Source: Escherichia coli (lineage in GTDB: Bacteria > Pseudomonadota > Gammaproteobacteria > Enterobacterales > Enterobacteriaceae). From it: a DNA stretch of 64,000 bases. The translations under genes and the position numbers were made by a program. Position 1 is the first letter of the stretch, and each line of letters starts with the position of its first letter. The notes under the pieces are model-generated. The model searched no databases, had not been told where the DNA came from, and saw nothing but the letters and a program-made list of their open reading frames with translations. The stretch is from assembly GCF_044324785.1 (NCBI RefSeq), contig NZ_CP172127.1; one strand, written 5' to 3'. Positions 9,318 through 64,000 of this stretch are shown piece by piece.

Positions 9318-10142
9318 ATGGATAAACCAAAGGCGCATTGCTGCCTGCTTCTCCCCTGCTTTCTTTTCCTTTCGGCCTGTACCGTAGATATCAGCCAGCC
9401 AGACTCATCAGCCACAGCGGTAGATGCCGGGGCAAAAACATGGGCTGTCAAATTCCAGCATCAAAGCTCTTTCACCGAACAATCAATAAAAGAAATAACG
9501 GTACCTGATCTCAAACACGGCGATTTGCTGTTCTCCTCAAGCCTTGGGGTAACCTCATTTGGAATCCGCGTCTTCAGCACTTCCTCTGTGAGTCACGTTG
9601 CAATCTATCTGGGTGATAATAACGTTGCAGAAGCGACAGGCGCTGGCGTCCAGATTGTTTCCCTCAAAAAAGCGATGAAGCATAGCGATAAGCTTTTCGT
9701 CTTACGAGTCCCGGATCTTACCCCGCAACAAGCCACAGAAATCACCGCGTTCACCAACAAAATTAAAGATAGCGGTTACAACTATCGCGGCATTGTCGAA
9801 TTTATTCCCTTTATGGTGACTCGCCAGATGTGCTCACTGAATCCGTTCTCCGAGGATTTTCGTCAACAGTGCGTCAGCGGCCTGGCGAAAGCGCAGTTAA
9901 GCAGTGTGGGCGAAGGAGACAAAAAGTCGTGGTTTTGTTCGGAATTTGTCACTGATGCATTTGCTAAAGCCGGGCATCCGCTTACACTGGCGCAATCGGG
10001 CTGGATTAGCCCTGCCGATCTGATGCATATGCGTATTGGTGATGTCTCTGCGTTTAAGCCAGAAACGCAGTTACAGTATGTTGGGCACCTGAAGCCAGGG
10101 ATTTATATCAAGGCGGGTCGCTTTGTTGGGCTGACTCAGTGA
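9318..10142 (+). CDS. yaeF: Predicted NlpC/P60-type lipoprotein YaeF
   Basis: 274-aa ORF with lipoprotein signal (FLFLSAC lipobox); recognised as YaeF from sequence and position; start chosen at second ATG. Confidence 0.8.
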   Translation: MDKPKAHCCLLLPCFLFLSACTVDISQPDSSATAVDAGAKTWAVKFQHQSSFTEQSIKEITVPDLKHGDLLFSSSLGVTSFGIRVFSTSSVSHVAIYLGDNNVAEATGAGVQIVSLKKAMKHSDKLFVLRVPDLTPQQATEITAFTNKIKDSGYNYRGIVEFIPFMVTRQMCSLNPFSEDFRQQCVSGLAKAQLSSVGEGDKKSWFCSEFVTDAFAKAGHPLTLAQSGWISPADLMHMRIGDVSAFKPETQLQYVGHLKPGIYIKAGRFVGLTQ

Positions 10143-10144
10143 TG

Positions 10145-10168
10145 AAAGCCGGAGAATGCTCCGGCTTT
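10145..10168. terminator. Hairpin shared by convergent yaeF and nlpE (bidirectional terminator)
   Basis: AAAGCCGGAG-AATG-CTCCGGCTTT perfect 10-bp stem in the 29-bp gap between the two stop codons. Confidence 0.5.
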
Positions 10169-10171
10169 CAA

Positions 10172-10882
10172 TTACTGCCCCAAACTACTGCAATCCTGGT
10201 TCGGATAAAATTTACCCGCCGTATCGGGCGCTAATACTTTGGTTGGCGCACCGGTATCCGGATTAGCCTCAAGCGTAAAGTGCCCTTCTAATGACAGTAA
10301 CATCGGTTTTTCACTATGACCGCGCGCAGCCAGGTAGCCACGCTCCAGCTCTGCGTTATTCGCTACCATGAAACGTTTTCCGGTCGCGCAATCAGTGAAG
10401 GTCGCCGCATCAGCCATATAAAAATACATGCCCCGCAGGGTCATCGGCGTCATGGGTAAACTGGATTGTGCCGGTTCCAGCGTATAGTTGAACTGCGATT
10501 CAATCGGATTACCTTCACGATCGAGCATCTCCAGCGCATCTCCTTTCGCCCGATAATATGACTTTTCACCTTTGCTGTCGGTTAATACCAGCTTGTCAGC
10601 GGTTCGCGCCCATGTACCGTAGGAAGCGAAAGAGGAAGGCTCTTCACGCGCACCAAGATAGCGTTCATTCATCACCCAGGTTCCATCTTTTTCGAGGAAC
10701 AAAGAGGTTTCGATCCCTTCGCAATCGGCACACGGCAGCACGCCGCGCCAACTTTGCGGCATCGGTTTCAGTTCGGCAGCCTGCGCCGGAGAAAGCGTGT
10801 CGACTTCGGCCCGATTATTACATCCCATCAGAGTAAAGAGGCTGATTACAGCCATCGCTGTCACTATCGCTTTTTTCACCAT
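10172..10882 (-). CDS. nlpE: Cpx-pathway outer-membrane lipoprotein NlpE (CutF)
   Basis: 236-aa ORF, lipobox LMGCN, CxxC motif; recognised NlpE. Confidence 0.93.
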   Translation of the reverse strand: MVKKAIVTAMAVISLFTLMGCNNRAEVDTLSPAQAAELKPMPQSWRGVLPCADCEGIETSLFLEKDGTWVMNERYLGAREEPSSFASYGTWARTADKLVLTDSKGEKSYYRAKGDALEMLDREGNPIESQFNYTLEPAQSSLPMTPMTLRGMYFYMADAATFTDCATGKRFMVANNAELERGYLAARGHSEKPMLLSLEGHFTLEANPDTGAPTKVLAPDTAGKFYPNQDCSSLGQ

Positions 10883-12482: not shown

Positions 12483-12515
12483 GCCGGATGCGACGTTTGA
12501 TGCGTATCCGGCCTT
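12483..12515. repeat. REP-like imperfect palindrome between convergent rof and tilS
   Basis: GCCGGATGCGACG...GCGTATCCGGCC resembles REP consensus (GCCGGATG ... CATCCGGC). Confidence 0.45.
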
Positions 12516-21654: not shown

Positions 21655-22799
21655 TGTGCTAACTCCAGAACGGCTTGTGCCGCCTGCTCATCGGCATTGC
21701 AGCGGATCTGCTGATGCAGTTCACGGAAGGTGTCGTGCATCGCGTGGCTGGTTTTCCCGTTCGCCAACAGCGGTAACAGCGCCGCAGCCAGTTTTTGCGG
21801 CTCACACTCTTCCTGCAATAACTCTTTGACTAACTCTCTGCCCGCCAGCAAATTGGGTAGAGAAACATAATCAGTTTTCACCAGTCGCTTCGCCAGCCAG
21901 AAGGTAAAAGGCTTCATGCGATATCCCACTACCATCGGGCATTTCGCCAGCATGCACTCCAGTGCTGCCGTCCCCGACGCCAATAGTGCCGCATCACTAG
22001 CGACCATCGCCTCACGGCCCATCCCATCCAACATATGAACCGACAGGTCTGGCGCAACTTCAGCTTTGATGCGTTCAAACTGCTCGCGGCGTTTGGCATT
22101 CACCAGCGGCACCACAATTTCGAGATCCGGATATGTCTGGCGCAAAAGCTGGGCCGTTTTCAGGAAATCGGCACTAAGCATTTCGACTTCTGCACCACGG
22201 CTGCCCGGCAACAATGCCAGACAGTGGGCATCGTGAGGGATCCCCAGCACATCACGGGCACCATTTTTATCTGGATCTAATGGCATGGCATCAGCCATGG
22301 TATGACCGATAAAGCGGCACGGTACGTTGTATTTGTCATAAAACGCTTTTTCGAAAGGCAGAAATGCGAGCACCAGATCGGTGGCTCTGCCTATTTTGAA
22401 AACGCGTTTCTGTCGCCACGCCCAGACGGACGGACTGACGTAATGAATGGTTTTGATACCCTGCTTTTTGAGGTTACCTTCAAGGGTAATATTGAAGTCA
22501 GGCGCATCAATACCGATAAAAACATCTGGCTTCAGTTCGCCAAAACGCGTTGTCAGATCGGCACGAATATGCAGTAAGCGACGCAGACGCCCGAGCACTT
22601 CAACAATGCCCATCACCGCCAGCTCTTCCATTTCGTACCAGGCTTCGCAGCCTTCAGCCTGCATTCGTGGCCCGGCAACACCAACAAAGCGGGCGTTGGG
22701 CACACGTTCTTTCAGAGCGCGGATTAAACCGGCCCCCAGGATATCGCCGGAGGTTTCTCCGGCGACCAGGGCAATCGTTAATGGACGCTGTTCAGTCAT
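21651..22799 (-). CDS. lpxB: Lipid-A-disaccharide synthase
   Basis: 382-aa ORF recognised as LpxB. Confidence 0.96.
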
Positions 22800-41076: not shown

Positions 41077-41889
41077 ATGATCACACGCAGGCGTTTTTTA
41101 CAGGCAGCCGCCGCGACGTTAGCTGCCGGATCAAGCCTCAGCTATATGCATTATTGGGAACCTGGCTGGCTTGAAATAACCCATCACAGCATCAGCTTTT
41201 TTAAAGACAAAGCCCTACCTTTTAAAATTCTTTTTCTGGCAGATCTCCATTACTCCCGCTTTGTTCCGCTTACCTTGTTTTCAGACGCCATTAATCATGG
41301 AGTGGCACAAAAGCCCGATTTGATTCTGCTAGGCGGCGATTACGTATTGTTTGATATGCCGCTGAATTTTTCAGCCTTCAGTGACGTACTCTCTCCCCTT
41401 GCCAAATGTGCGCCGACATTTGCCTGTTACGGCAACCACGATCGCCCCGTGAGAACGGAGAAAAATCACTTAATTGGCGAGGCGTTAAAGACGGCGGGGA
41501 TCACGGTGTTATTTAACGAAGCCACGCTTATCTCCACTCAGAAGCAGCAATTTGAACTGGTTGGCGCAGGTGATTTATGGGCCGGGCAATGTAATCCACC
41601 CGGCGTAAATGACGCGAGTCTGCCACGGCTGATGCTGGCGCATAATCCCGACAGTAAAGAACGCCTGCGCGAAGAAAAATGGGATCTAATGCTTTGCGGT
41701 CATACTCACGGCGGGCAGCTCCACGTGCCGTTAATAGGCGAACCTTTTGCGCCTGTTGCCGATAAACGCTACGTCGCCGGGTTAAATGCCTTTGGCGAGC
41801 GGCAAATTTACACCACCCGCGGCGTGGGAAATTTGCATGGCTTGCGTCTGAACTGCCGCCCGGAAGTGACGATGCTGGAACTGATTTAA
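41077..41889 (+). CDS. yaeI: Tat-signal metallophosphoesterase YaeI
   Basis: 270-aa protein with twin-arginine signal (TRRRFLQAAAATLAAG) and calcineurin-like GDY/GNHD motifs; start trimmed from the 368-aa ORF that runs back into dapD. Confidence 0.88.
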   Translation: MITRRRFLQAAAATLAAGSSLSYMHYWEPGWLEITHHSISFFKDKALPFKILFLADLHYSRFVPLTLFSDAINHGVAQKPDLILLGGDYVLFDMPLNFSAFSDVLSPLAKCAPTFACYGNHDRPVRTEKNHLIGEALKTAGITVLFNEATLISTQKQQFELVGAGDLWAGQCNPPGVNDASLPRLMLAHNPDSKERLREEKWDLMLCGHTHGGQLHVPLIGEPFAPVADKRYVAGLNAFGERQIYTTRGVGNLHGLRLNCRPEVTMLELI

Positions 41890-41903
41890 CTGGAGATTCA
41901 ATA

Positions 41904-42614
41904 ATGGATTATTTTCTCGGCGGCTATATGTTGCTACATTGCCTGCCCGTTGAGGGGCTTCATCCGCAACTTAAAGGTAAACCACTGCTAACGTGCAGTA
42001 CCTGTTTTAATGAAAGTCTGCTTTGTGCCTGGTCTTACGCGTGGTTAGGTTCCGATAAAGACTCTCCTTATGATGGCAATATGTCACTTTACGAACATCT
42101 GGAAGCCACTTTTTTGCTTACAGACGAAGACAGGGAACAGATCCGCATCCGGGCAAATGATTGGTTCAATGAGGATAAAGTTGGCTGGGAAAGTATATTC
42201 ATGGATAAATCGACCGCTATTGAATATAAACAAAGTTTCTTTCCCCATATCGAGAATTGCTACCTTCTTGCAATCTATATCAGAGAACCGAATGTACAAG
42301 AGTTCTCCCTTTATCCATCCCATGATGGTATTGCTGCAAGGCTTCTTCGCAGGCAGCCTGAACGAAATGAAATGGATGAAAAGTTATTAGGTTACGATAT
42401 TCTGGGTCTGGAAATCGGCGGGCAGTTCCATACATCTCACTGCCATCCATTGTATAACGAACTCCACCAGCGCTTCGGTCTCACCCTCAATCAACACGGA
42501 CTTTATAACGAAATCCCGGACTGGCAACCGGTCGTGGACTATATGAACGACGACGCCACGGGATGCGAACCCGTCCCCTGGGGTATCGCCACAATAAAGC
42601 AGGTAATTTTTTGA
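41904..42614 (+). CDS. Hypothetical protein, unrecognised family (accessory ORF between yaeI and yaeH)
   Basis: 711-nt ORF filling an otherwise intergenic gap; GGAG Shine-Dalgarno 8 nt upstream of ATG; starts 14 nt after yaeI stop, same strand; AT-richer than neighbours; no signal peptide or TM segment evident; 7 Cys incl. CSTC and HTSHCH motifs. Confidence 0.72.
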   Translation: MDYFLGGYMLLHCLPVEGLHPQLKGKPLLTCSTCFNESLLCAWSYAWLGSDKDSPYDGNMSLYEHLEATFLLTDEDREQIRIRANDWFNEDKVGWESIFMDKSTAIEYKQSFFPHIENCYLLAIYIREPNVQEFSLYPSHDGIAARLLRRQPERNEMDEKLLGYDILGLEIGGQFHTSHCHPLYNELHQRFGLTLNQHGLYNEIPDWQPVVDYMNDDATGCEPVPWGIATIKQVIF

Positions 42615-43120: not shown

Positions 43121-43132
43121 TGCCATTCTGTG

Positions 43133-43164
43133 GGCCGGGTAAAGTCTCACCCGGCTGTAATTTT
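43133..43164 (+). terminator. Rho-independent terminator after yaeH
   Basis: GCCGGGTAAAGTCTCACCCGGC hairpin followed by TGTAATTTT. Confidence 0.6.
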
Positions 43165-43173
43165 GTCATCGAC

Positions 43174-49793: not shown

Positions 49794-49802
49794 AGAGAGA
49801 AG

Positions 49803-49829
49803 ATGTGCCGGATAGTTTATCCGGCACAT
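49803..49829. terminator. Perfect 12-bp hairpin between convergent yadS and erpA
   Basis: ATGTGCCGGATA-GTT-TATCCGGCACAT. Confidence 0.45.
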
Positions 49830-49839
49830 GAACAACAGA

Positions 49840-51911: not shown

Positions 51912-53192
51912 ATGAGTAAGTCTGAAAATCTTTACAGCGCAGCGCGCGAGCTGATCCCTGGCGGTGTGAACTCCCCTGTTCGCGCCTTTACTGGCGTGGG
52001 CGGCACTCCACTGTTTATCGAAAAAGCGGACGGCGCTTATCTGTACGATGTTGATGGCAAAGCCTATATCGATTATGTCGGTTCCTGGGGGCCGATGGTG
52101 CTGGGCCATAACCATCCGGCGATCCGCAATGCCGTGATTGAAGCCGCCGAGCGTGGTTTAAGCTTTGGTGCACCGACCGAAATGGAAGTGAAAATGGCGC
52201 AACTGGTGACCGAACTGGTCCCGACCATGGATATGGTGCGCATGGTGAACTCCGGCACTGAAGCGACCATGAGCGCCATCCGCCTGGCCCGTGGTTTTAC
52301 CGATCGCGACAAAATCATTAAATTTGAAGGTTGTTACCACGGTCACGCTGACTGCCTGCTGGTGAAAGCCGGTTCTGGCGCACTCACGTTAGGCCAGCCA
52401 AACTCGCCGGGCGTTCCGGCAGATTTCGCCAAACATACCTTAACCTGTACTTATAACGATCTGGCCTCTGTACGCGCCGCTTTCGAACAGTACCCGCAAG
52501 AGATTGCCTGTATTATCGTCGAGCCGGTGGCAGGCAATATGAACTGCGTTCCACCGCTGCCAGAGTTCCTGCCAGGTCTGCGTGCGCTGTGTGACGAATT
52601 TGGCGCGTTGCTGATCATCGATGAAGTGATGACCGGTTTCCGCGTAGCGCTAGCTGGCGCACAGGATTATTACGGCGTAGTACCAGATTTAACCTGCCTC
52701 GGCAAAATCATCGGCGGTGGAATGCCGGTAGGCGCATTCGGTGGTCGTCGTGATGTAATGGATGCGCTGGCCCCGACCGGTCCGGTCTATCAGGCGGGTA
52801 CGCTTTCCGGTAACCCGATTGCGATGGCAGCCGGTTTCGCCTGTCTGAATGAAGTCGCACAGCCGGGCGTTCACGAGACGCTGGATGAGCTGACAACACG
52901 TCTGGCAGAAGGTCTGCGGGAAGCGGCAGAAGAAGCCGGAATTCCGCTGGTGGTAAACCACGTTGGCGGCATGTTCGGTATTTTCTTTACCGACGCCGGG
53001 TCCGTGACGTGCTATCAGGATGTGATGGCCTGTGACGTGGAACGCTTTAAGCGTTTCTTCCATATGATGCTGGACGAAGGTGTTTACCTGGCACCGTCAG
53101 CGTTTGAAGCGGGCTTTATGTCTGTGGCGCACAGCATGGAAAATATCAATAACACCATCGATGCTGCACGTCGGGTGTTTGCGAAGTTGTGA
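51912..53192 (+). CDS. hemL: Glutamate-1-semialdehyde 2,1-aminomutase
   Basis: 426-aa ORF recognised as HemL. Confidence 0.96.
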
Positions 53193-53226
53193 TGATTTTG
53201 CCTCGCCCACCGGGCGAGGCATTCGA

Positions 53227-55209
53227 TTAACGGCTCTGCTTTCTCAACAAATAGATAAAATACGGCGCGCCGATAAAGGTCGACAGCAGCCCCGCTGGGA
53301 TCTGGAATGGAAACAGCACCATCCGCCCACACCAGTCAGCGAACACCAGCAGTAAACCACCCACCAGCGCCGAAATTACGATGTGCGGCATCGTCCGTCG
53401 AAAGCCCATCATCCGCGCAATATGCGGTGCCATTAAACCAACAAAACTCAACGGTCCAATGGTCATTGTCGCGGTCGCCGTCAGGCAAGCCGCTAACAGC
53501 AGCAGCGCAATTCGCGTCGGCGTCAGCGCCATTCCCACGGCTCGTGCGGTATCACCTCCCAGCGGTAAAATGGTCAGCCAGCGGCGGCACAGCGGGGTAA
53601 TCGCCAGCAAAATCACCATCACAATTCCCGTGCGCCAGACCTGCGCATCGGTCGCGTTGTAGGTCGAACCGGAAATCCAGGTCAGAACTTGCGCCATTCG
53701 CGGGTCACCACTTGCCTGCAACATCATCAAAAGCATGGTGAACGCGGTACTTAACGCCATCCCCGCCAGTAACATGCGGTGTGGGGAAAATCCACCGCGT
53801 CCGGCGGCGATCATAATGATCAACAGCGTCACTGCCGCCCCGAGACTTCCCGCGGGTAACAGCCAGCCAAAGGCATTACCCGGCACCAGAAACAGCATTA
53901 ATACCACGCCAAACGCCGCGCCGGAGCTAATCCCCAGCACTTCCGGGCTTGCCATCGGGTTGCCGGTCAGCCGCTGAATAATACAGCCCGCCACCGCCAG
54001 CATGACGCCCGCAAACAGCGCCGCCATAATTCGCGGCCAGCGCCAGGGCATCAAATCCTCGAGCAACGCCCCGCTCGCCCACGTCCAGCCGTGCGCATCA
54101 CGACCAAACGACAGCGCCACCACCACAGCCATCAACAGCAGCACGCCGCCCGCGAGGGCAAACGCCAGCACATGTTGGCGTTCAGCAGCGACACGATCGT
54201 TCACCTTCATATCCGGCGCGCTAATGCTGCGTAAACGCGGCAGCAGCCACAGCAGCAGCGGCGCACCGAGGAGCGCAGTGACCGAACCGGTAGAAACTTC
54301 CATCCACACGCGAGTCAGCCAGAGGATGATTTGATCAGAAAGCCACAGAATTAACGCCCCAATCAGCGACGCCAGCATCAATCGTGGCAACAAACGCCGC
54401 GCCCCCAGCATTTTTGCCAGCAGCGGCGCGAACAACCCGATAAAGCCGATAATCCCCACTGCATTCACCAGCAGCGCACTGATGACTATCGCCAGCGACA
54501 GCGCCGCCAGACGCGCCAGCGACAAGGCCAGACCGAGATTGCGCGCCACGCCATCATCAAGCCCCATCAGGGTTAACGGGCGAAGTAGCAATAATGTCAG
54601 CATCACGCCGCCCAGCAGCTGCGGCCATAAACGCTCAACGCCGCCCCAGTCGGTTTGCGTCAGCGTTCCGGTGCTCCACAGGAACATGCTTTGTAGCTGG
54701 TCGTGATGGAAGATAACCAGTAACTGATTGATTGCTCCGCAATAAAGGCTCACCACCAGCCCCGCGAGGATCAGCGTTACCGGCGACAGCCGTTTCCCCC
54801 ACGCGACGCCAAAGACAATTAAGCCAACAACGCAAGCCCCTGCCAGCGCAGCAAACTGGCTCGCCATAGCACCTGGGATCGCCCAGAGCGTAGTGACGGT
54901 AATCCCCAGTTGCGCGCCTGTTGCAACGCCCAACGTCGTCGGTTCCGCCAGCGGGTTACGCAGCACTTGCTGAAACAGCACACCCACCAGCCCCAGGCCC
55001 GCGCCCACCAGCAGCGAAATCGCCAGACGCGGCAACAAGCTGTAGTGAAAAATCATCTGCTCGATGACATCGATATCCGGCGACCAGGCAGCCTGCGCCC
55101 ACTGGCTACGCGGCAGCGCTTGCGAAAAGTTCATCCAGGTGAGCGCCGCTGCGACAATCACCAGCAGCGCCAGCAATAACGCCGGGAAAAGCGCAATTCG
55201 TTTACTCAC
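53227..55209 (-). CDS. fhuB: Ferric hydroxamate ABC transporter permease
   Basis: 660-aa duplicated permease recognised as FhuB; overlaps fhuD stop by 4 nt. Confidence 0.95.
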   Translation of the reverse strand: MSKRIALFPALLLALLVIVAAALTWMNFSQALPRSQWAQAAWSPDIDVIEQMIFHYSLLPRLAISLLVGAGLGLVGVLFQQVLRNPLAEPTTLGVATGAQLGITVTTLWAIPGAMASQFAALAGACVVGLIVFGVAWGKRLSPVTLILAGLVVSLYCGAINQLLVIFHHDQLQSMFLWSTGTLTQTDWGGVERLWPQLLGGVMLTLLLLRPLTLMGLDDGVARNLGLALSLARLAALSLAIVISALLVNAVGIIGFIGLFAPLLAKMLGARRLLPRLMLASLIGALILWLSDQIILWLTRVWMEVSTGSVTALLGAPLLLWLLPRLRSISAPDMKVNDRVAAERQHVLAFALAGGVLLLMAVVVALSFGRDAHGWTWASGALLEDLMPWRWPRIMAALFAGVMLAVAGCIIQRLTGNPMASPEVLGISSGAAFGVVLMLFLVPGNAFGWLLPAGSLGAAVTLLIIMIAAGRGGFSPHRMLLAGMALSTAFTMLLMMLQASGDPRMAQVLTWISGSTYNATDAQVWRTGIVMVILLAITPLCRRWLTILPLGGDTARAVGMALTPTRIALLLLAACLTATATMTIGPLSFVGLMAPHIARMMGFRRTMPHIVISALVGGLLLVFADWCGRMVLFPFQIPAGLLSTFIGAPYFIYLLRKQSR

Positions 55210-56943: not shown

Positions 56944-59133
56944 TTAGAAACGGAAGGTTGCGGTTGCAACGACCTGACGTTCTGCGCCCCAGAAGCAGCC
57001 ATAGGTCTGGAAGCAACTGGCAACATACTCACGATCGAGCAAATTGTTGACGTTCACAGCAAGGCTGGATCCCGCCATACCAAAGCGTGCCAGATCATAT
57101 TTTACAACAGCATCCATTACAGCTGCGCTACCCACTTTAAAAGTGTTCGCCGGATCACCATAGCTGGAACCAATAAAACGACCACCTGTTCCCAATGTTA
57201 AACCAGAAAGCGGCCCTTCATTGAAGGTATAATCCCCCCAGAGAGATGCCATATGCTCCGGTACTTGTTCTGGAGTTTTACCTTTGAGATTGGTGTCTTT
57301 GGTGTATTCCGCATCGGTGTAGGTATAAGAAGCCGTCAAGTTAATATTGGCATTTAACGCCGCTTTTGCTTCAAGTTCCACACCACGAGCGCGAATCTCA
57401 CCTGCCGGGACTTGCGCTAATGGGTTTGTTGGGTCTGCTGTCAGGTTATTTGTTTTCGTCAATTGATAGACTGCGCCCGTAACAACGACCGGCATATCAT
57501 TCGGAACATATTTTACGCCAGCTTCATACTGTTCACCTTTCGATGGCTTATAGGAAACGCGCGGGTTGCTCCACAGATCGAAAGCACTCGGTTCAAAGGA
57601 CTGGCTATAGCTAAAGTAAGGTGAAATACCATTATCGAATAAGTAATTTACACCACCGCGCCAGGTGAACTGATGATCATTGCGCTCAATATAACCTTCA
57701 GTCGGCGTATAAGAGTTTTCACGAACAGTGGTCGCTTGCTTAGACCAATCGTAGCGTCCCCCCAGAGTGAATACCCATTTATTCCATTCCGCCTGATCCT
57801 GAACATAAATACCTGTTTGTTTGCTTTCATTCATCTGGTATGGCTCTGCGCTACCAAATGCAAAGTATTCAGGATGGTATTTGTTATAAAGATCGATGGA
57901 TGGTGCAGATCCAAAGCTGGCATTGATATCATTGCGCATACGCATGAAGTCTACCCCTGTCAGCAAAGTATGCCCGACGTCACCTGTAGCAAACTTACTT
58001 TCAAGCTGGGTATCAACGCTAAAGTTTTGTAGACGCTCATTATCCACCACTGTCCCGCGGTTTAGGGTATGACCATCGCTGGCAATCCCTGTGCCATAAA
58101 CACTTTTCTGTGAGGTTTTCATTTCACTGAAACGCAGATTCTGACGCACGGTGAAGGTGTCATTAAAACCATGTTCAAAACTATATCCCACCATTTTCTG
58201 GTTACGGGAGTATGTATTATTCGATGCACCTTCATTGAAGTCAGTCGGTAGACGCTTACCATTAGGCAATGGCTCAACGGTCCCCTCTTTCGGCAACCAA
58301 CCGTAATAACCCGTTTCTGGTTCGTTCTGAAAATAGGACAGGAAAGTAAAATTGGTTTTGTCGTCTGGACGCCATGAGAATGATGGAGCAATGGTATAAC
58401 GCTGAGATTCAGAGTTTTTCTGCTGTTCGTTTGTTGAGCGTGCGAGGCCAGTCAAACGGTAGGAGAACTCACCGTTATCATCCAGCGCATCACTGAAATC
58501 GAATCCGGTCTGAAACAGATTATCCGTCCCCATTTTAAACTGAATTTCTTTCAGGGGTTCAGTTGTCGGACGCTTACTCACCATAGAAATAATCCCACCA
58601 GGATTACTTTTCCCATAGAGAACAGACGTCGGCCCGCGCATCAGTTCAACCCTCTCGAGCATGTAAGGATCAATCACAGCATCGTTATAAAAGTTGCCCT
58701 GAAGTTTTAGTCCATCAAGGTAATTATTTTGATTCAGACCAACAGATGAGAAACCACGAATGATAACAAAATCATATGTATTAGAAGCACCACGACTGCT
58801 AACCGTAACGCCAGGTGTATAACCTAATGCTTCTTTTACAGACTGAAATTGATGCATCTGCATCTCTTCATTTGTCACAACCGAAATAGACTGCGGCGTT
58901 TTTTCAATTGGTGTATCCGTTTTAGTCGCAGTAGCAGAGTGCTTCGCCGCAATAGTTGCAGCCGGTCCCCATGCGCTTTCTTGCGGCGCAGGTGCAGCGG
59001 TAACGGTGATAGTGTCTTCTTTCGGTTCAACCGCTGCCTGTGCATAAACAGACATGCCGCTAACCGCTGTGGCTACTACAACTGCGATTTTACGCAGTGA
59101 GTGTTTTGGCTGAGCAGTTTTGGAACGCGCCAT
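56944..59133 (-). CDS. fhuA: TonB-dependent ferrichrome outer-membrane receptor FhuA, divergent allele (729 aa)
   Basis: Signal peptide and TonB box (DTITVTA) plus C-terminal barrel end (ASCFQTYGCFWGAERQVVATATFRF) recognised; much of the intervening sequence differs from the K-12 protein as I recall it. Confidence 0.9.
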   Translation of the reverse strand: MARSKTAQPKHSLRKIAVVVATAVSGMSVYAQAAVEPKEDTITVTAAPAPQESAWGPAATIAAKHSATATKTDTPIEKTPQSISVVTNEEMQMHQFQSVKEALGYTPGVTVSSRGASNTYDFVIIRGFSSVGLNQNNYLDGLKLQGNFYNDAVIDPYMLERVELMRGPTSVLYGKSNPGGIISMVSKRPTTEPLKEIQFKMGTDNLFQTGFDFSDALDDNGEFSYRLTGLARSTNEQQKNSESQRYTIAPSFSWRPDDKTNFTFLSYFQNEPETGYYGWLPKEGTVEPLPNGKRLPTDFNEGASNNTYSRNQKMVGYSFEHGFNDTFTVRQNLRFSEMKTSQKSVYGTGIASDGHTLNRGTVVDNERLQNFSVDTQLESKFATGDVGHTLLTGVDFMRMRNDINASFGSAPSIDLYNKYHPEYFAFGSAEPYQMNESKQTGIYVQDQAEWNKWVFTLGGRYDWSKQATTVRENSYTPTEGYIERNDHQFTWRGGVNYLFDNGISPYFSYSQSFEPSAFDLWSNPRVSYKPSKGEQYEAGVKYVPNDMPVVVTGAVYQLTKTNNLTADPTNPLAQVPAGEIRARGVELEAKAALNANINLTASYTYTDAEYTKDTNLKGKTPEQVPEHMASLWGDYTFNEGPLSGLTLGTGGRFIGSSYGDPANTFKVGSAAVMDAVVKYDLARFGMAGSSLAVNVNNLLDREYVASCFQTYGCFWGAERQVVATATFRF

Positions 59134-59352: not shown

Positions 59353-61878
59353 TTAATTACTACCAAACATATCCTTGATCCAACCAGCTACACCGTCGCT
59401 GTCTTTCTGCTCTTGCTGAGCAGGTTGCTGTTGCTGCGGCTGAGAAGACTGATCAAACGGATTGCCTGACGGTTGCTGCTGCATCTCACTCTGCTGGCAC
59501 AGCGATTGCGGATCGCTGGTCCAGACCGGCAAGACACGCATACCACCGCTGCAAACAAAGTTGCCGTCGTAGTCCACGCCCATATCTGCAATATCTTCTG
59601 GCGGAACAAGATTTAGCGGCGTTGGCGTCTGGTTAGCCAGATAACGCTGATAAATCGACATTGCCCCGCTGGCTCCATACAGTTTGGTCGGCTGGTTGTT
59701 ATCACGGCCGACCCAGGTGATGGTCACCGTGCTGCCGTCAATGCCCGCAAACCAGGTATCTACGTTGTTGTTGGTAGTCCCGGTTTTTCCCGCCAGATGC
59801 AGATTTGGATATTTCGCCCCAAGCTGACGCCCCGTACCACGTTGTACCACCTGCTGCATGGTCCATAGTGTCAGATACGCCGCCTGCGCCGGAACAGCGC
59901 GTTCTGCCTGCGGGAAGCTCTGATACAGCACCTTGCCATCTTCCGCGATTACCGAACGCAGCGCAGAAAGCGGAGCACGGTTACCGCCGCTGGCGATGGT
60001 CTGGAATGCCTGCGCCACTTCGATTGGCGTTAAGTTCAACGCCCCCAGCAGCATCGCCGGAACCGGATGCAGCTGATCTTTCGGTACGCCCAGTTTAATC
60101 CAGGTCTCCGTAACCGCAGGCAGCCCCAGCGCCATCCCCAGATTTACCGTCGGCACGTTCATCGAACGGGTCAACGCATCCACCAGCATCACTCTGCCGC
60201 TTTCGCTATAACGACGGTCATCGTTCTGCGGTGACCAGACCTGGCCATTTGGCTGACGCAGCGCGATTGGCGCATCCGCAATCCACGTATTCAGACGATA
60301 GATTTTCGGCTGGCTTAAAGCCGTCAGATAAGTCGCTGGTTTTGCAAGGGAACCAATCGAACGACGCGCCTGCATCGCACGGTTGTAGCCCGCAAACTGC
60401 GGCTCAGAACCACCGACCATCGCACGAACTTCACCGCTAAAGCGGTCAACAACCACAATCGCGGTTTCAAGATCGCTCAACTTACGCTGTTTCTTCAGTG
60501 CCGGAATGCCTTCCACGGCGGCTTTTTCTGCCGCGTCCTGGGCCACCGAGTCAAAGGTAGTGAAGATCTTCACGCCGGAGAGATCTTTTACCTTATCGCC
60601 TAATTTCGCCTGCAGCTCCTGACGCACCAGTTGCATAAAGGCTGGCTGAGGAGAGATCACCCCACCGCGCGGCTGAACACCCAGCGGACGTGCACTCAAC
60701 ATATCATAGAGTTCTTGATCAATAATCTGTTGCTGTTGCAGCAAACGTAGCACCAGGTTACGTCGCTCCAGCGCCAGTTTCGGGTTACGCCACGGGTTGT
60801 AGATGGACGCCCCTTTAACCATACCCACCAACAGCGCCTGCTGATCGAGGCTCAATTCTTCTACCGGACGACCAAAGTAATACAAGCTCGCCAGCGGGAA
60901 GCCGCGGATTTCGTTGTCGCCGCTCTGACCGAGATACACCTCGTTCATATACAGCTCAAGAATACGGTCTTTGCTGTAACGCGCGTCCATGATCAGCGCC
61001 ATGTAAGCTTCGTTCGCTTTACGCCAGTAAGAGCGCTCGCTGGAGAGGAACAGGTTTTTCACCAGCTGTTGCGTCAGCGTACTCGCACCCTGCACCGTGC
61101 GTCCGGCGGTCAGGTTTGCCAGCACCGCACGCCCAATTGAGTAGAGGCTGATCCCATCATGTTCGTAGAAATGACGGTCTTCTGTCGCCAGCAAAGTATC
61201 CACCAGCAAATCCGGGAAACCACTGCGCGGCACAAACAGACGCTGCTCACCGTTTGGCGAAGAGATCATGGTGATCAGACGCGGATCAAGACGGAAGAAA
61301 CCGAACTGACGGTTGTTCTCCATATTGACGATCGTCGCCAGATGATCGCCATCAAAGGTCAGACGTGCACGCACCTGCCCTTCTTTACTGTCCGGGAAAT
61401 CAAACGGACGGCGGATCATCTCAATGCTGTTGGCCTGCACGGTAAATTCGCCGGGACGGGTCATTTTCGACACCTGACGATACTGGGTCGCCTCCAGCAG
61501 CTTCACCATCTCGTTCTTGCTGATGGTCATGTCTGGCTCAAGGTTGACCATCCGGCCATAAACTGCCGCGGGCAGTTGCCAGACCTTACCATCAATACGG
61601 CTGCGAATTTTTTGATCGAGATAAACGCCGTAAATGGCGATCAGCACGGCAAAAACGATAGCCAGTTTTAGCAGCAGCCATAGCCAGCCGCGTTTGCCAC
61701 GAGGCTTACGCCCTTTGCCTTTGCCCTTACCTTTGCGCGGCATCGGTTCTTCATCCTCATAGTCATCATAATCGTCGTAATCATCGTCATCTTCGTAACG
61801 ACGACGGCTTACCTTTTGTTTGACCGGACGCGTCGGTTTCCCTTTGCGTCCAATTGGCTCGCGGTCATTCCCGGCCAT
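59353..61878 (-). CDS. mrcB: Penicillin-binding protein 1B
   Basis: Recognised MrcB (acidic [15 protein letters not shown] and KGKGKGKG N-terminal repeats, TM anchor, transglycosylase and transpeptidase domains); start at MAGNDREP. Confidence 0.95.
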
Positions 61879-61971
61879 GCTTTTTCTCCGCAATATTCAG
61901 GCGCAAAAGCCCGATTTTCTGTTCTTCTGTTGCAAGACAGAAGAAGATATCTCTCAAATTTACTTTGATCT

Positions 61972-64000
61972 TCACGAATACTTTTTCGTTCGTCGCGTTG
62001 GTGCTGTGTTTGCCGGGTCGTCCGGCCAGACATGTTTGGGATAACGCCCTTTCATCTCTTTTTGCACCTCACGGTACGCTCCTTTCCAGAAGGCGCTCAA
62101 ATCACGCGTGATTTGCAGCGGCCTTTGGGCAGGGGAAAGCAACTCCAGCACCAGCGGCACGCGCCCCTGAGCGATCGTCGGATTGGTGGCCTCACCAAAC
62201 ATCTCCTGCATTCTCACCGCCAGCGCGGGCGGGTTATCTTCATGATAACGAATGGCGATCCGGCTTCCCGTCGGCACAGTGTAATGCGCAGGCAATTCAC
62301 TATCCAGACGTTGCTGCATTCCCCAATCAAGTAATCCGCGTAGTGCCTGATAAATGTCGAGTGATTTCAGGCCGCGTAGTGAATGCACGCCGCTCATATG
62401 CGGCAGTAGCCACGTTTCCAGCGTCGCCAACAAACTCTCATCATCAACCGCTGGCCAGTCATATTCCGGCAACCACTTTGCGGCGCATAACAAACGCAAG
62501 CGTAGCTGTTCCGCTTCCGCCGTCCAGTTGAGCACGCTTAAACCTTTATCACGAATGCCGTTAAGCATCGCCTGATGCAACTCGTCTTCCGAGGGTTTCG
62601 CCAGCGGCTGCACTTTCACCGTCAACTGACCGATTTGCAGCCGACGCCAGGCTTTCAGCGTACCTTGCGCGTCATCCCACTCCACAGTGTCAGACTGCTG
62701 TACCAGCTGCGGACAGCGTTGTACTAACTCATCAATATCGACCGGCAGCGCCAGTAAAATCCGTGCATCCGGCGAGGCGCTGCCCTGCAATAATAACGGT
62801 GCGATCAACCATTCGTGGCGGCTTAGCGCATCGTCGGCATCGAGCATCGCCCCCATGCCGTTTGCCAGTTGATAGCGTCCATCTTGCCCACGGCGACGAG
62901 CAATGCGATCGGCATACGCCCCGGCAAGTAGCGGCGCGATAAGCGAACTGTCTGCCTCACCGCCGCGTACGTTTAAACGTTTTAACAGTTGCTGACTACG
63001 TTGCTGCCAGGCGGGTTGATTGCGCGAAAATGCCACGCCCAGGTCACAATTGCCCATCCGTGGCGGCTCTTCGAGAATAGCGGCAATTTTTGCCGCGGTA
63101 GCAGCTTCGTCGTCGCTCTTCGCGCTCACCAGCATTGCCGCTAAACGCGGATCGTTACCCAGCGCCGCCATTTTTTGCCCTTGCGCGCTTAGCCGTTCGC
63201 CATCCAGCGCTCCCAGCATCCGTAACAGGCGTTTCGCGGCCTGTAAATTCACTGCTGGCGGTTGATCCAGCCAGCTCATCTGCGCCGGATCGCTGCATCC
63301 CCATTGCAGTAATTCCATCAGCAAACCGGAAAGATCGCTTTGTAAGATCTCCGGTTCACTTTGCGCGGCAGCGCGTTCTGCTTGTTCTTTGGCGATTAAA
63401 TGCAGGCAGATACCCGGCTCCAGACGCCCGGCGCGCCCGGCACGCTGCGTCATGGATGCCTGACTAACGCGTTGAGTAATCAACCGCGTAAGCCCCGTGC
63501 GCGGATCAAAACGCGCCACACGCTCCTGGGCACAATCCACCACCAGACGAATACCTTCGATGGTTAAACTTGTTTCAGCAATATTGGTCGCCAGCACCAC
63601 TTTGCGCATTCCTTGCGGTGCCGGAAGGATCGCTTTTCGCTGATCGTTCAGCGACAACGCGCCATACAGCGGGCAGAGCAACACATCACTGCCGATGCGC
63701 GAAGCCAGTTGTTCCTGCACGCGCTGAATTTCTCCGACGCCAGGTAAAAATAACAGTAATGATCCGCTTTCCTGACGCAGCATTTCGGCGGTGGCTACCG
63801 CAACGGCTTCGTCAAAACGCTGATGCGCGGGCAGCGGTAAATAACGGCGTTCAACCGGAAACGAGCGCCCTTCTGAGATGACGACGGGCGCTTCTGGCAG
63901 CATTTGCTGCAAGCTGTCGTTGTCCAGCGTAGCCGACATAATCAGCAGTTTAAGGTCATCACGCAGACCTTGTTGCACATCGAGTAACAGCGCCAACGCC
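61972..64000 (-). CDS. hrpB: ATP-dependent RNA helicase HrpB (DEAH-box), 5'-truncated by window end
   Basis: 674-aa C-terminal portion recognised as HrpB; N-terminus lies beyond position 64000. Confidence 0.9.
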   Translation of the reverse strand, partial: ALALLLDVQQGLRDDLKLLIMSATLDNDSLQQMLPEAPVVISEGRSFPVERRYLPLPAHQRFDEAVAVATAEMLRQESGSLLLFLPGVGEIQRVQEQLASRIGSDVLLCPLYGALSLNDQRKAILPAPQGMRKVVLATNIAETSLTIEGIRLVVDCAQERVARFDPRTGLTRLITQRVSQASMTQRAGRAGRLEPGICLHLIAKEQAERAAAQSEPEILQSDLSGLLMELLQWGCSDPAQMSWLDQPPAVNLQAAKRLLRMLGALDGERLSAQGQKMAALGNDPRLAAMLVSAKSDDEAATAAKIAAILEEPPRMGNCDLGVAFSRNQPAWQQRSQQLLKRLNVRGGEADSSLIAPLLAGAYADRIARRRGQDGRYQLANGMGAMLDADDALSRHEWLIAPLLLQGSASPDARILLALPVDIDELVQRCPQLVQQSDTVEWDDAQGTLKAWRRLQIGQLTVKVQPLAKPSEDELHQAMLNGIRDKGLSVLNWTAEAEQLRLRLLCAAKWLPEYDWPAVDDESLLATLETWLLPHMSGVHSLRGLKSLDIYQALRGLLDWGMQQRLDSELPAHYTVPTGSRIAIRYHEDNPPALAVRMQEMFGEATNPTIAQGRVPLVLELLSPAQRPLQITRDLSAFWKGAYREVQKEMKGRYPKHVWPDDPANTAPTRRTKKYS

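Follow-up and report, generated by a model that had tools for sequence, protein, structure and literature searches.

The stretch of DNA analyzed here, a 64-kb segment of an Escherichia coli genome (hereinafter the window), is collinear with the 162.5-226.3 kb region of K-12 MG1655 in reverse orientation and spans the genes from hrpB to rrnH, with 92-98.5% identity between the two genomes in the aligned blocks. Among 5,426 complete RefSeq genomes of E. coli, the top match to window positions 6000-30000 comes from strain N3, with an identity of only 99.2%; over the same range, strain 042, which we take to belong to phylogroup D, is 98.8% identical, and the lineage of the window has its relatives among phylogroup D strains, 042 being an example. 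Elsewhere along the alignment, about 700 bp of fhuA (57400-58093) have no megablast alignment to K-12 and are bounded on either side by blocks that are only 92-94% identical, a divergence that fits diversifying variation in a phage and colicin receptor. Relative to K-12, 9 bp (GCTGTTGCG, in frame) are missing near the 3' end of mrcB (window position 59427), and 5 bp are missing from the rrnH spacer region (position 594).

Three short intergenic spacers are of special interest. The yaeF gene (9318-10142, plus strand, with the start deduced from the RefSeq gene length of 825 bp) encodes a C92/NlpC-P60 permuted papain-like enzyme (Pfam PF05708 and PF00877, together with the RefSeq annotation of matching genomes) and converges on nlpE (10172-10882, minus strand), the gene for the Cpx-activating lipoprotein; the stop codons of the two genes are located at 10140-10142 and, on the complement, at 10172-10174, leaving a spacer of exactly 29 bp (10143-10171). 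Similarly, hemL (51912-53192, plus strand) and fhuB (53227-55209, minus strand), with stop codons at 53190-53192 and, on the complement, at 53227-53229, converge across 34 bp (53193-53226). The third spacer, of 93 bp (61879-61971, minus strand), separates the stop codon of hrpB (61972-61974) from the ATG of mrcB (61878-61876). All three lengths coincide with those given in a preliminary description of this DNA, which presented the three loci as convergent gene pairs; this is correct for yaeF/nlpE and hemL/fhuB but not for hrpB and mrcB, which are co-directional, both on the minus strand. Altogether, the window contains five convergent spacers of 29-53 bp, namely yaeF/nlpE (29 bp), rof/tilS (48 bp), yaeH/cdaR (53 bp), yadS/erpA (46 bp) and hemL/fhuB (34 bp), and each of the five holds one GC-rich hairpin.

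The hairpin in the yaeF/nlpE spacer, GAAAGCCGGAG-AATG-CTCCGGCTTTC (10144-10169), is a perfect palindrome with an 11-bp stem and a 4-nt loop, flanked on both strands by an A-run on the 5' side and a T-run on the 3' side. In folding predictions, the plus strand reaches -27.5 kcal/mol (z = -8.3) and the minus strand -24.2 kcal/mol (z = -5.5), and none of 200 shuffled sequences folds as well on either strand, so that the single shared hairpin noticed in the initial inspection of the sequence is real. The core is invariant across seven short alleles with diverged flanks and accordingly gives no covariation for the structure. The U-tracts are short (UUUCAAUU and UUUCAUCA), and neither GTAG nor CTAC is found next to the palindrome, the sequence after the hairpin being TTTCAATTA. 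The hemL/fhuB spacer contains a hairpin with a 9-10-bp stem, (T)GCCTCGCCC-ACC-GGGCGAGGC(A) (53199-53221), which occurs once in the window and folds with -26.4 and -20.6 kcal/mol on the two strands (z = -5.0 and -3.6). The tails here are AUUCGAUU and, on the fhuB side, AAAAUCAU, the latter a poor tail for an intrinsic terminator, and this palindrome also lacks an adjacent GTAG or CTAC, being followed by ATTCGATTA. Thus, a stable GC-rich stem-loop is present on both strands at both convergent sites, with z values between -3.6 and -8.3.

So what could these compact hairpins be? Being palindromic, they form in both convergent transcripts, and judging by the sequence, each most likely represents a putative shared Rho-independent terminator and/or a 3'-exonuclease block, such that one palindromic hairpin would serve both transcripts as a terminator and/or a 3'-end protector. 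The resemblance to bidirectional Rho-independent terminators, 306 of which were identified in E. coli according to a study cited in a recent preprint (bioRxiv 10.64898/2026.03.23.713779), consists in the GC-rich palindromic stem with A-run and T-run flanks between convergent stop codons. Unlike such terminators, the window hairpins have short U-tracts and begin only 1-6 nt from the stop codons. A terminator consensus scan called neither the yaeF/nlpE nor the hemL/fhuB hairpin. A search of the whole window against Rfam at the gathering threshold detected rRNA, tRNA, CssrA, t44, StyR-44 and the HtrA thermometer, with no match in the yaeF/nlpE, hemL/fhuB or hrpB/mrcB spacers.

In MG1655, the same three spacers are 199 bp (yaeF/nlpE), 157 bp (hemL/fhuB) and 195 bp (hrpB/mrcB) long, that is, the reference is longer than the window at all three sites, in accord with the preliminary description, which supposed longer K-12 spacers at some of these sites and attributed the extra DNA to REP/BIME. 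By definition, a REP is an imperfect palindrome whose foot bears the conserved tetranucleotide GTAG/CTAC (Ton-Hoang et al. 2012, PMC3333891). No repeat_region features are listed at these intervals in the NC_000913.3 annotation, and therefore the K-12 REPs were identified from sequence, using blastn-short with y, z1 and z2 consensus sequences. The syntenic region of K-12 yields four strong matches, with E values of 1e-11 to 1e-14. Between nlpE and yaeF, K-12 carries a z1 unit and a y unit that agree with the consensus at 35 of 36 and 33 of 34 positions, respectively, with GTAG and CTAC; between fhuB and hemL, there are y and z1 units, each with 31 of 32 positions matching, and a weaker third (y) unit. 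At both convergent sites, the REP units show 97% identity to the consensus and are arranged as paired inverted REPs, and an 83-nt segment of the K-12 BIME is found in at least 36-80 places per genome. The extra K-12 DNA between yaeF and nlpE and between fhuB and hemL is canonical REP/BIME. In the same search, none of the three consensus sequences was matched over its full length anywhere in the 64-kb window; the window gave nothing better than E = 0.02, and the three spacers gave no hit. A fixed-length IUPAC REP consensus (Stern-type, with up to six mismatches) found no match even in K-12, because the loop length varies.

The hairpins at yaeF/nlpE and hemL/fhuB are not REPs: they show no consensus match, no GTAG/CTAC and no internal mismatch, and even with all hits up to E = 10 counted, the 30-nt yaeF/nlpE hairpin has no more than 1-3 places in a genome, two places being the two strands of one palindrome. 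The hairpins are perfect palindromes of 18-26 nt, compared to 30-40 nt for a REP. Apart from a degenerate y-type hairpin between the convergent genes rof and tilS (12483-12512), present in K-12 as well, the window contains no REP-like element. The possibility presents itself that, rather than independent terminators, the compact hairpins are miniaturized or decayed REPs, that is, relics of internal deletion or excision. Indeed, the GCCGGA...TCCGGC foot of the yaeF/nlpE stem exactly reproduces the outer stem of a y-type REP, and the left flank AAAGCC is also present in the BIME allele. The pattern GCCGGA-N(2-28)-TCCGGC occurs four times in the window against 0.19 expected, a number that none of 100 shuffles reaches; three of the copies (10148-10165, 12483-12512 and 49807-49825) are hairpins in convergent spacers, so that this motif is found in three of the five such spacers, and the fourth (22746-22763) lies inside lpxB. 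However, the foot lacks GTAG/CTAC, and the palindrome is perfect, whereas TnpA(REP) binding requires both a mismatch and GTAG (PMC3333891); the length falls short of that of a REP, the copy number is low, and the hemL/fhuB hairpin has no similarity to REPs at all. On balance, we consider a relic origin improbable and favor the interpretation of the hairpins as putative terminators or 3'-end protectors that are distinct from REPs, although some of the compact hairpins could have a relationship to REPs. The yadS/erpA spacer (49794-49839, 46 bp), with the hairpin GTGCCGGATA-GTT-TATCCGGCAC, has the same length as in K-12. The yaeH/cdaR spacer (43121-43173, 53 bp) contains the hairpin GGCCGGGT..ACCCGGCT, and its K-12 counterpart is 88 bp long, with a different hairpin. 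This is the fourth spacer replaced wholesale relative to K-12, with a REP in neither allele, and the window version of it is found in 1,783 of the 5,426 genomes.

The hrpB-mrcB site is a different case. The additional 102 bp of K-12 at this site comprise an inverted pair of CCCTCTCCC/GGGAGAGGG/GGGTGAGGG blocks, with no similarity to REPs. The BoxC/PIT/TMECO repeats are recognized by three consecutive CCCTC(T/G)CCC ... GGG(A/G)GAGGG ... GGGTGAGGG blocks, often in the form of an A+B inverted pair, and the K-12 pair is the one listed as TMECO no. 1 (MG1655 164547-164580) and no. 2 (164631-164597) in PMC4666352 Table 1. This identity rules out a REP as the extra DNA, so that the attribution to REP/BIME in the preliminary description, which is valid for the two convergent sites, fails here. 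Each of the four diagnostic BoxC 9-mers is present at K-12 hrpB-mrcB and none in the window, where the spacer is in the empty, BoxC-free state. In window coordinates, K-12 has its insertion between 61974 and 61973, within the stop codon of hrpB; the insertion is clean and changes this codon from TGA to TAA. BoxC/PIT/TMECO elements are intrastrand-triplex repeats that form unstable loci (Holder et al. 2015, PMC4666352), and the TMECO motifs are often absent or deleted among E. coli strains and are absent from Salmonella (PMC4666352). A 64-bp internal deletion in the BoxC pair of an O111:NM strain fits this reported instability. In the window, the element is simply missing. The spacer is 93 bp long in E. 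albertii and 80 bp in Salmonella, in both cases collinear with the window, and hence, as far as sequence comparison goes, the hrpB-mrcB spacer of the window looks like an ancestral empty site.

The vicinity of this site shows additional variation. In C. koseri, a REP pair directly follows the hrpB stop codon, at the same point as the BoxC pair of K-12 and where the window, E. albertii and Salmonella are empty, which suggests a hot spot at which palindromic repeats of different kinds insert. In E. albertii, a chaperone-usher fimbrial operon that is found neither in the window nor in K-12 lies between mrcB and fhuA, in the order fimbrial subunit, PapD-like chaperone, usher, fimbrial subunit.

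How common are the short alleles? Junction queries that consisted of each spacer with 20-22 nt of each flank were run by blastn against the 5,426 complete E. coli genomes and identified one place per genome for each of the three sites. The short allele was detected in 538 of 5,426 genomes (9.9%) at yaeF-nlpE, in 3,713 of 5,426 (68.4%) at hemL-fhuB, where it is accordingly the majority state, and in 1,884 of 5,426 (34.7%) at hrpB-mrcB; conversely, a BIME occupies the yaeF-nlpE site in about 90% of E. coli. The short alleles are common polymorphisms rather than K-12 peculiarities, and the notion of strain-specific K-12 insertions, put forward in the preliminary description, has to be abandoned. 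The same counts bear on a trivial explanation, namely that repeats were collapsed or dropped in the assembly of the window genome, given that short palindromic repeats are prone to mis-assembly from short reads. Identical short junctions in hundreds to thousands of independently finished complete genomes lead us to reject such an artifact, the more so as the short alleles hold unique hairpin sequences of their own and are not clean deletions; the chance of it being the cause is vanishingly small.

Which state came first at each of the three sites? Between the stop codons at yaeF-nlpE and hemL-fhuB, there is almost no sequence in common between the short and the long alleles. Accordingly, the difference amounts to replacement of the whole spacer, or to the arrival of a foreign allele, and not to a clean insertion. 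At least four alleles can be distinguished between yaeF and nlpE: the 29/30-bp hairpin, a 154/155-bp y-L-z2 BIME, the 199-bp K-12 form and a BIME with IS621. The 621 bp around this site are only 95.7% identical to K-12, compared to about 98% for the neighboring DNA. For a broader comparison, NlpE was searched for in species-representative genomes and the nlpE loci of 80 Enterobacteriaceae species were examined. The same y-L-z2 BIME adjoins nlpE in E. whittamii, Escherichia sp. E1V33 and Escherichia sp. MOD1-EC7003; strain MOD1-EC7003 has kept the BIME but has lost yaeF except for a remnant. The Citrobacter species that possess yaeF have spacers of 47-78 bp with a plain A-stem-T terminator. In two genomes of E. 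albertii, the gap between fhuB and hemL holds a z1+y BIME that is homologous to that of K-12, in one as a single copy (118 bp) and in the other in tandem (210 bp), and Salmonella and C. koseri have REP-like palindromes of their own. In one E. albertii strain, fhuB is extended to 668 aa and runs into the BIME.

Judged by parsimony over a small number of outgroup genomes, which within the genus come from E. whittamii, Escherichia sp. E1V33, Escherichia sp. MOD1-EC7003 and E. albertii, the BIME state appears to be older than E. coli at yaeF-nlpE and hemL-fhuB because homologous BIMEs are present in other Escherichia. If so, the hairpin alleles at these two sites arose later, as replacements or through introgression, although genetic exchange among Escherichia species could give the same appearance of common descent at these sites. 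The preliminary description assumed the opposite polarity, with the short state ancestral, and the outgroups are compatible with this assumption only at hrpB-mrcB (E. albertii, Salmonella). The corresponding general scenario, under which the short form would be ancestral at all three sites and K-12 would have gained strain- or lineage-specific REP/BIME insertions, is not devoid of appeal: K-12 is longer at three of three sites, strains of phylogroup A are the richest in REPs (approximately 546 vs 395; PMC3333891), the short hrpB-mrcB form is shared with E. albertii and Salmonella, and the short hemL-fhuB form is in the majority. Nevertheless, this scenario has to contend with the homologous BIMEs in three other Escherichia at yaeF-nlpE and in E. 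albertii at hemL-fhuB, as well as with the prevalence of the BIME at yaeF-nlpE within E. coli itself. The long alleles contain no remnant of the short-allele hairpins and so are not simple insertions into the short ones, and the element at hrpB-mrcB is BoxC, not a REP. We deem insertion at all three sites an unlikely history.

The scenario that we consider quite probable combines two different histories. At yaeF-nlpE and hemL-fhuB, a low-copy, perfect GC-rich stem-loop that fills the whole gap between the stop codons would have replaced the BIME of other strains, so that these hairpins would be derived replacements or introgressed alleles rather than an untouched ancestral state. At hrpB-mrcB, the window would have kept the ancestral empty site, and K-12 along with about 65% of E. 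coli would have gained the inverted BoxC/TMECO pair of about 102 bp. The window thus probably combines repeat-free alleles at three sites, with hairpins in the place of BIMEs at two of them and an ancestral empty site at the third. A broader and more speculative generalization is that in the convergent spacers of E. coli, BIMEs and compact unique hairpins are interchangeable and substitute for one another by whole-spacer replacement, and that the hairpins with the y-REP foot are miniaturized derivatives or progenitors of REPs. We put this forward only tentatively, as a rather doubtful proposition; if true, such sites would offer a natural series for the birth, decay and functional substitution of REPs.

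Several other features of the yaeF-nlpE site are worth recording. The query for this locus was split in about 15% of the genomes: in 798 of 5,422 complete genomes, 80% coverage of it was not reached in any one place. In all three split genomes that were inspected (strains 492, C21 and 06_3235), a copy of IS621, an element of the IS110 family, separates the y REP of the BIME from the z2 REP, and the split genomes apparently are those in which the BIME is interrupted by IS621. This element targets REP sequences, and the REP-free allele of the window offers it no REP target at yaeF-nlpE. The yaeF gene itself has a patchy distribution: E. coli, E. whittamii, Escherichia sp. E1V33, some Citrobacter and members of the Klebsiella oxytoca group possess it; E. 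albertii, Salmonella arizonae and diarizonae, like many others, do not, and in these nlpE converges directly on proS. The YaeF protein of the window is just 94.6% identical to that of E69, another E. coli with the short allele.

A separate observation concerns a segment of about 700 bp (41884-42583) that, at megablast sensitivity, has no counterpart in K-12 or in any of the 5,426 complete genomes. The segment encodes a 236-aa protein (gene at 41904-42614) for which no match was found in Pfam, NCBIfam, PADLOC, PHROG or PDB sequences. The protein, which has conserved Cys/His residues, belongs to a small family of 21 clusters, and the corresponding locus of E. albertii and of an Enterobacter-like contig encodes homologues. 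This orphan gene may deserve more attention than the spacer differences.

In a wider context, the presence or absence, copy number and type of BIMEs have long been known to vary among E. coli strains (Bachellier et al. 1997, Genetics 145:551, as cited in PMC3333891). Both the copy number of BIMEs and the number of REPs differ between strains (Ton-Hoang et al. 2012, PMC3333891), with 286-574 REPs per genome and the highest numbers in phylogroup A (PMC3333891). Convergent gene pairs account for the location of about 60% of REPs, with a REP in 207 of 704 convergent spacers, and REPs are described as acting as terminators and stabilizers, with locations that differ between strains (bioRxiv 10.64898/2026.03.23.713779). 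The sites described here behave in the same manner, in that BIME sites of K-12 are empty, or have a different number or type of REPs, in other isolates. What is added here is that the REP-free alleles of the window are not bare excision scars: a unique hairpin fills the gap between the stop codons. The outgroups add the detail that the BIME state is indicated to be the older one at two sites. Differences between strains in REP/BIME and BoxC occupancy are already known and common, and nothing here departs from that picture.

What the comparison does provide is a set of lessons for the reading of E. coli genomes, in which REP/BIME and BoxC occupancy is a documented major source of intergenic polymorphism. 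K-12 is REP-rich and does not represent the default state; a difference in length from K-12 is not necessarily due to a REP; and 'absent here' is not equivalent to 'inserted there'. In functional terms, the putative role of the window hairpins matches what has been reported for REPs in 3'-UTRs. Given that REPs affect both termination and the stability of the mRNAs of flanking genes, the alternative spacer alleles could slightly alter the expression of nlpE, and with it Cpx signaling, as well as that of yaeF, hemL and fhuB, between lineages of E. coli.
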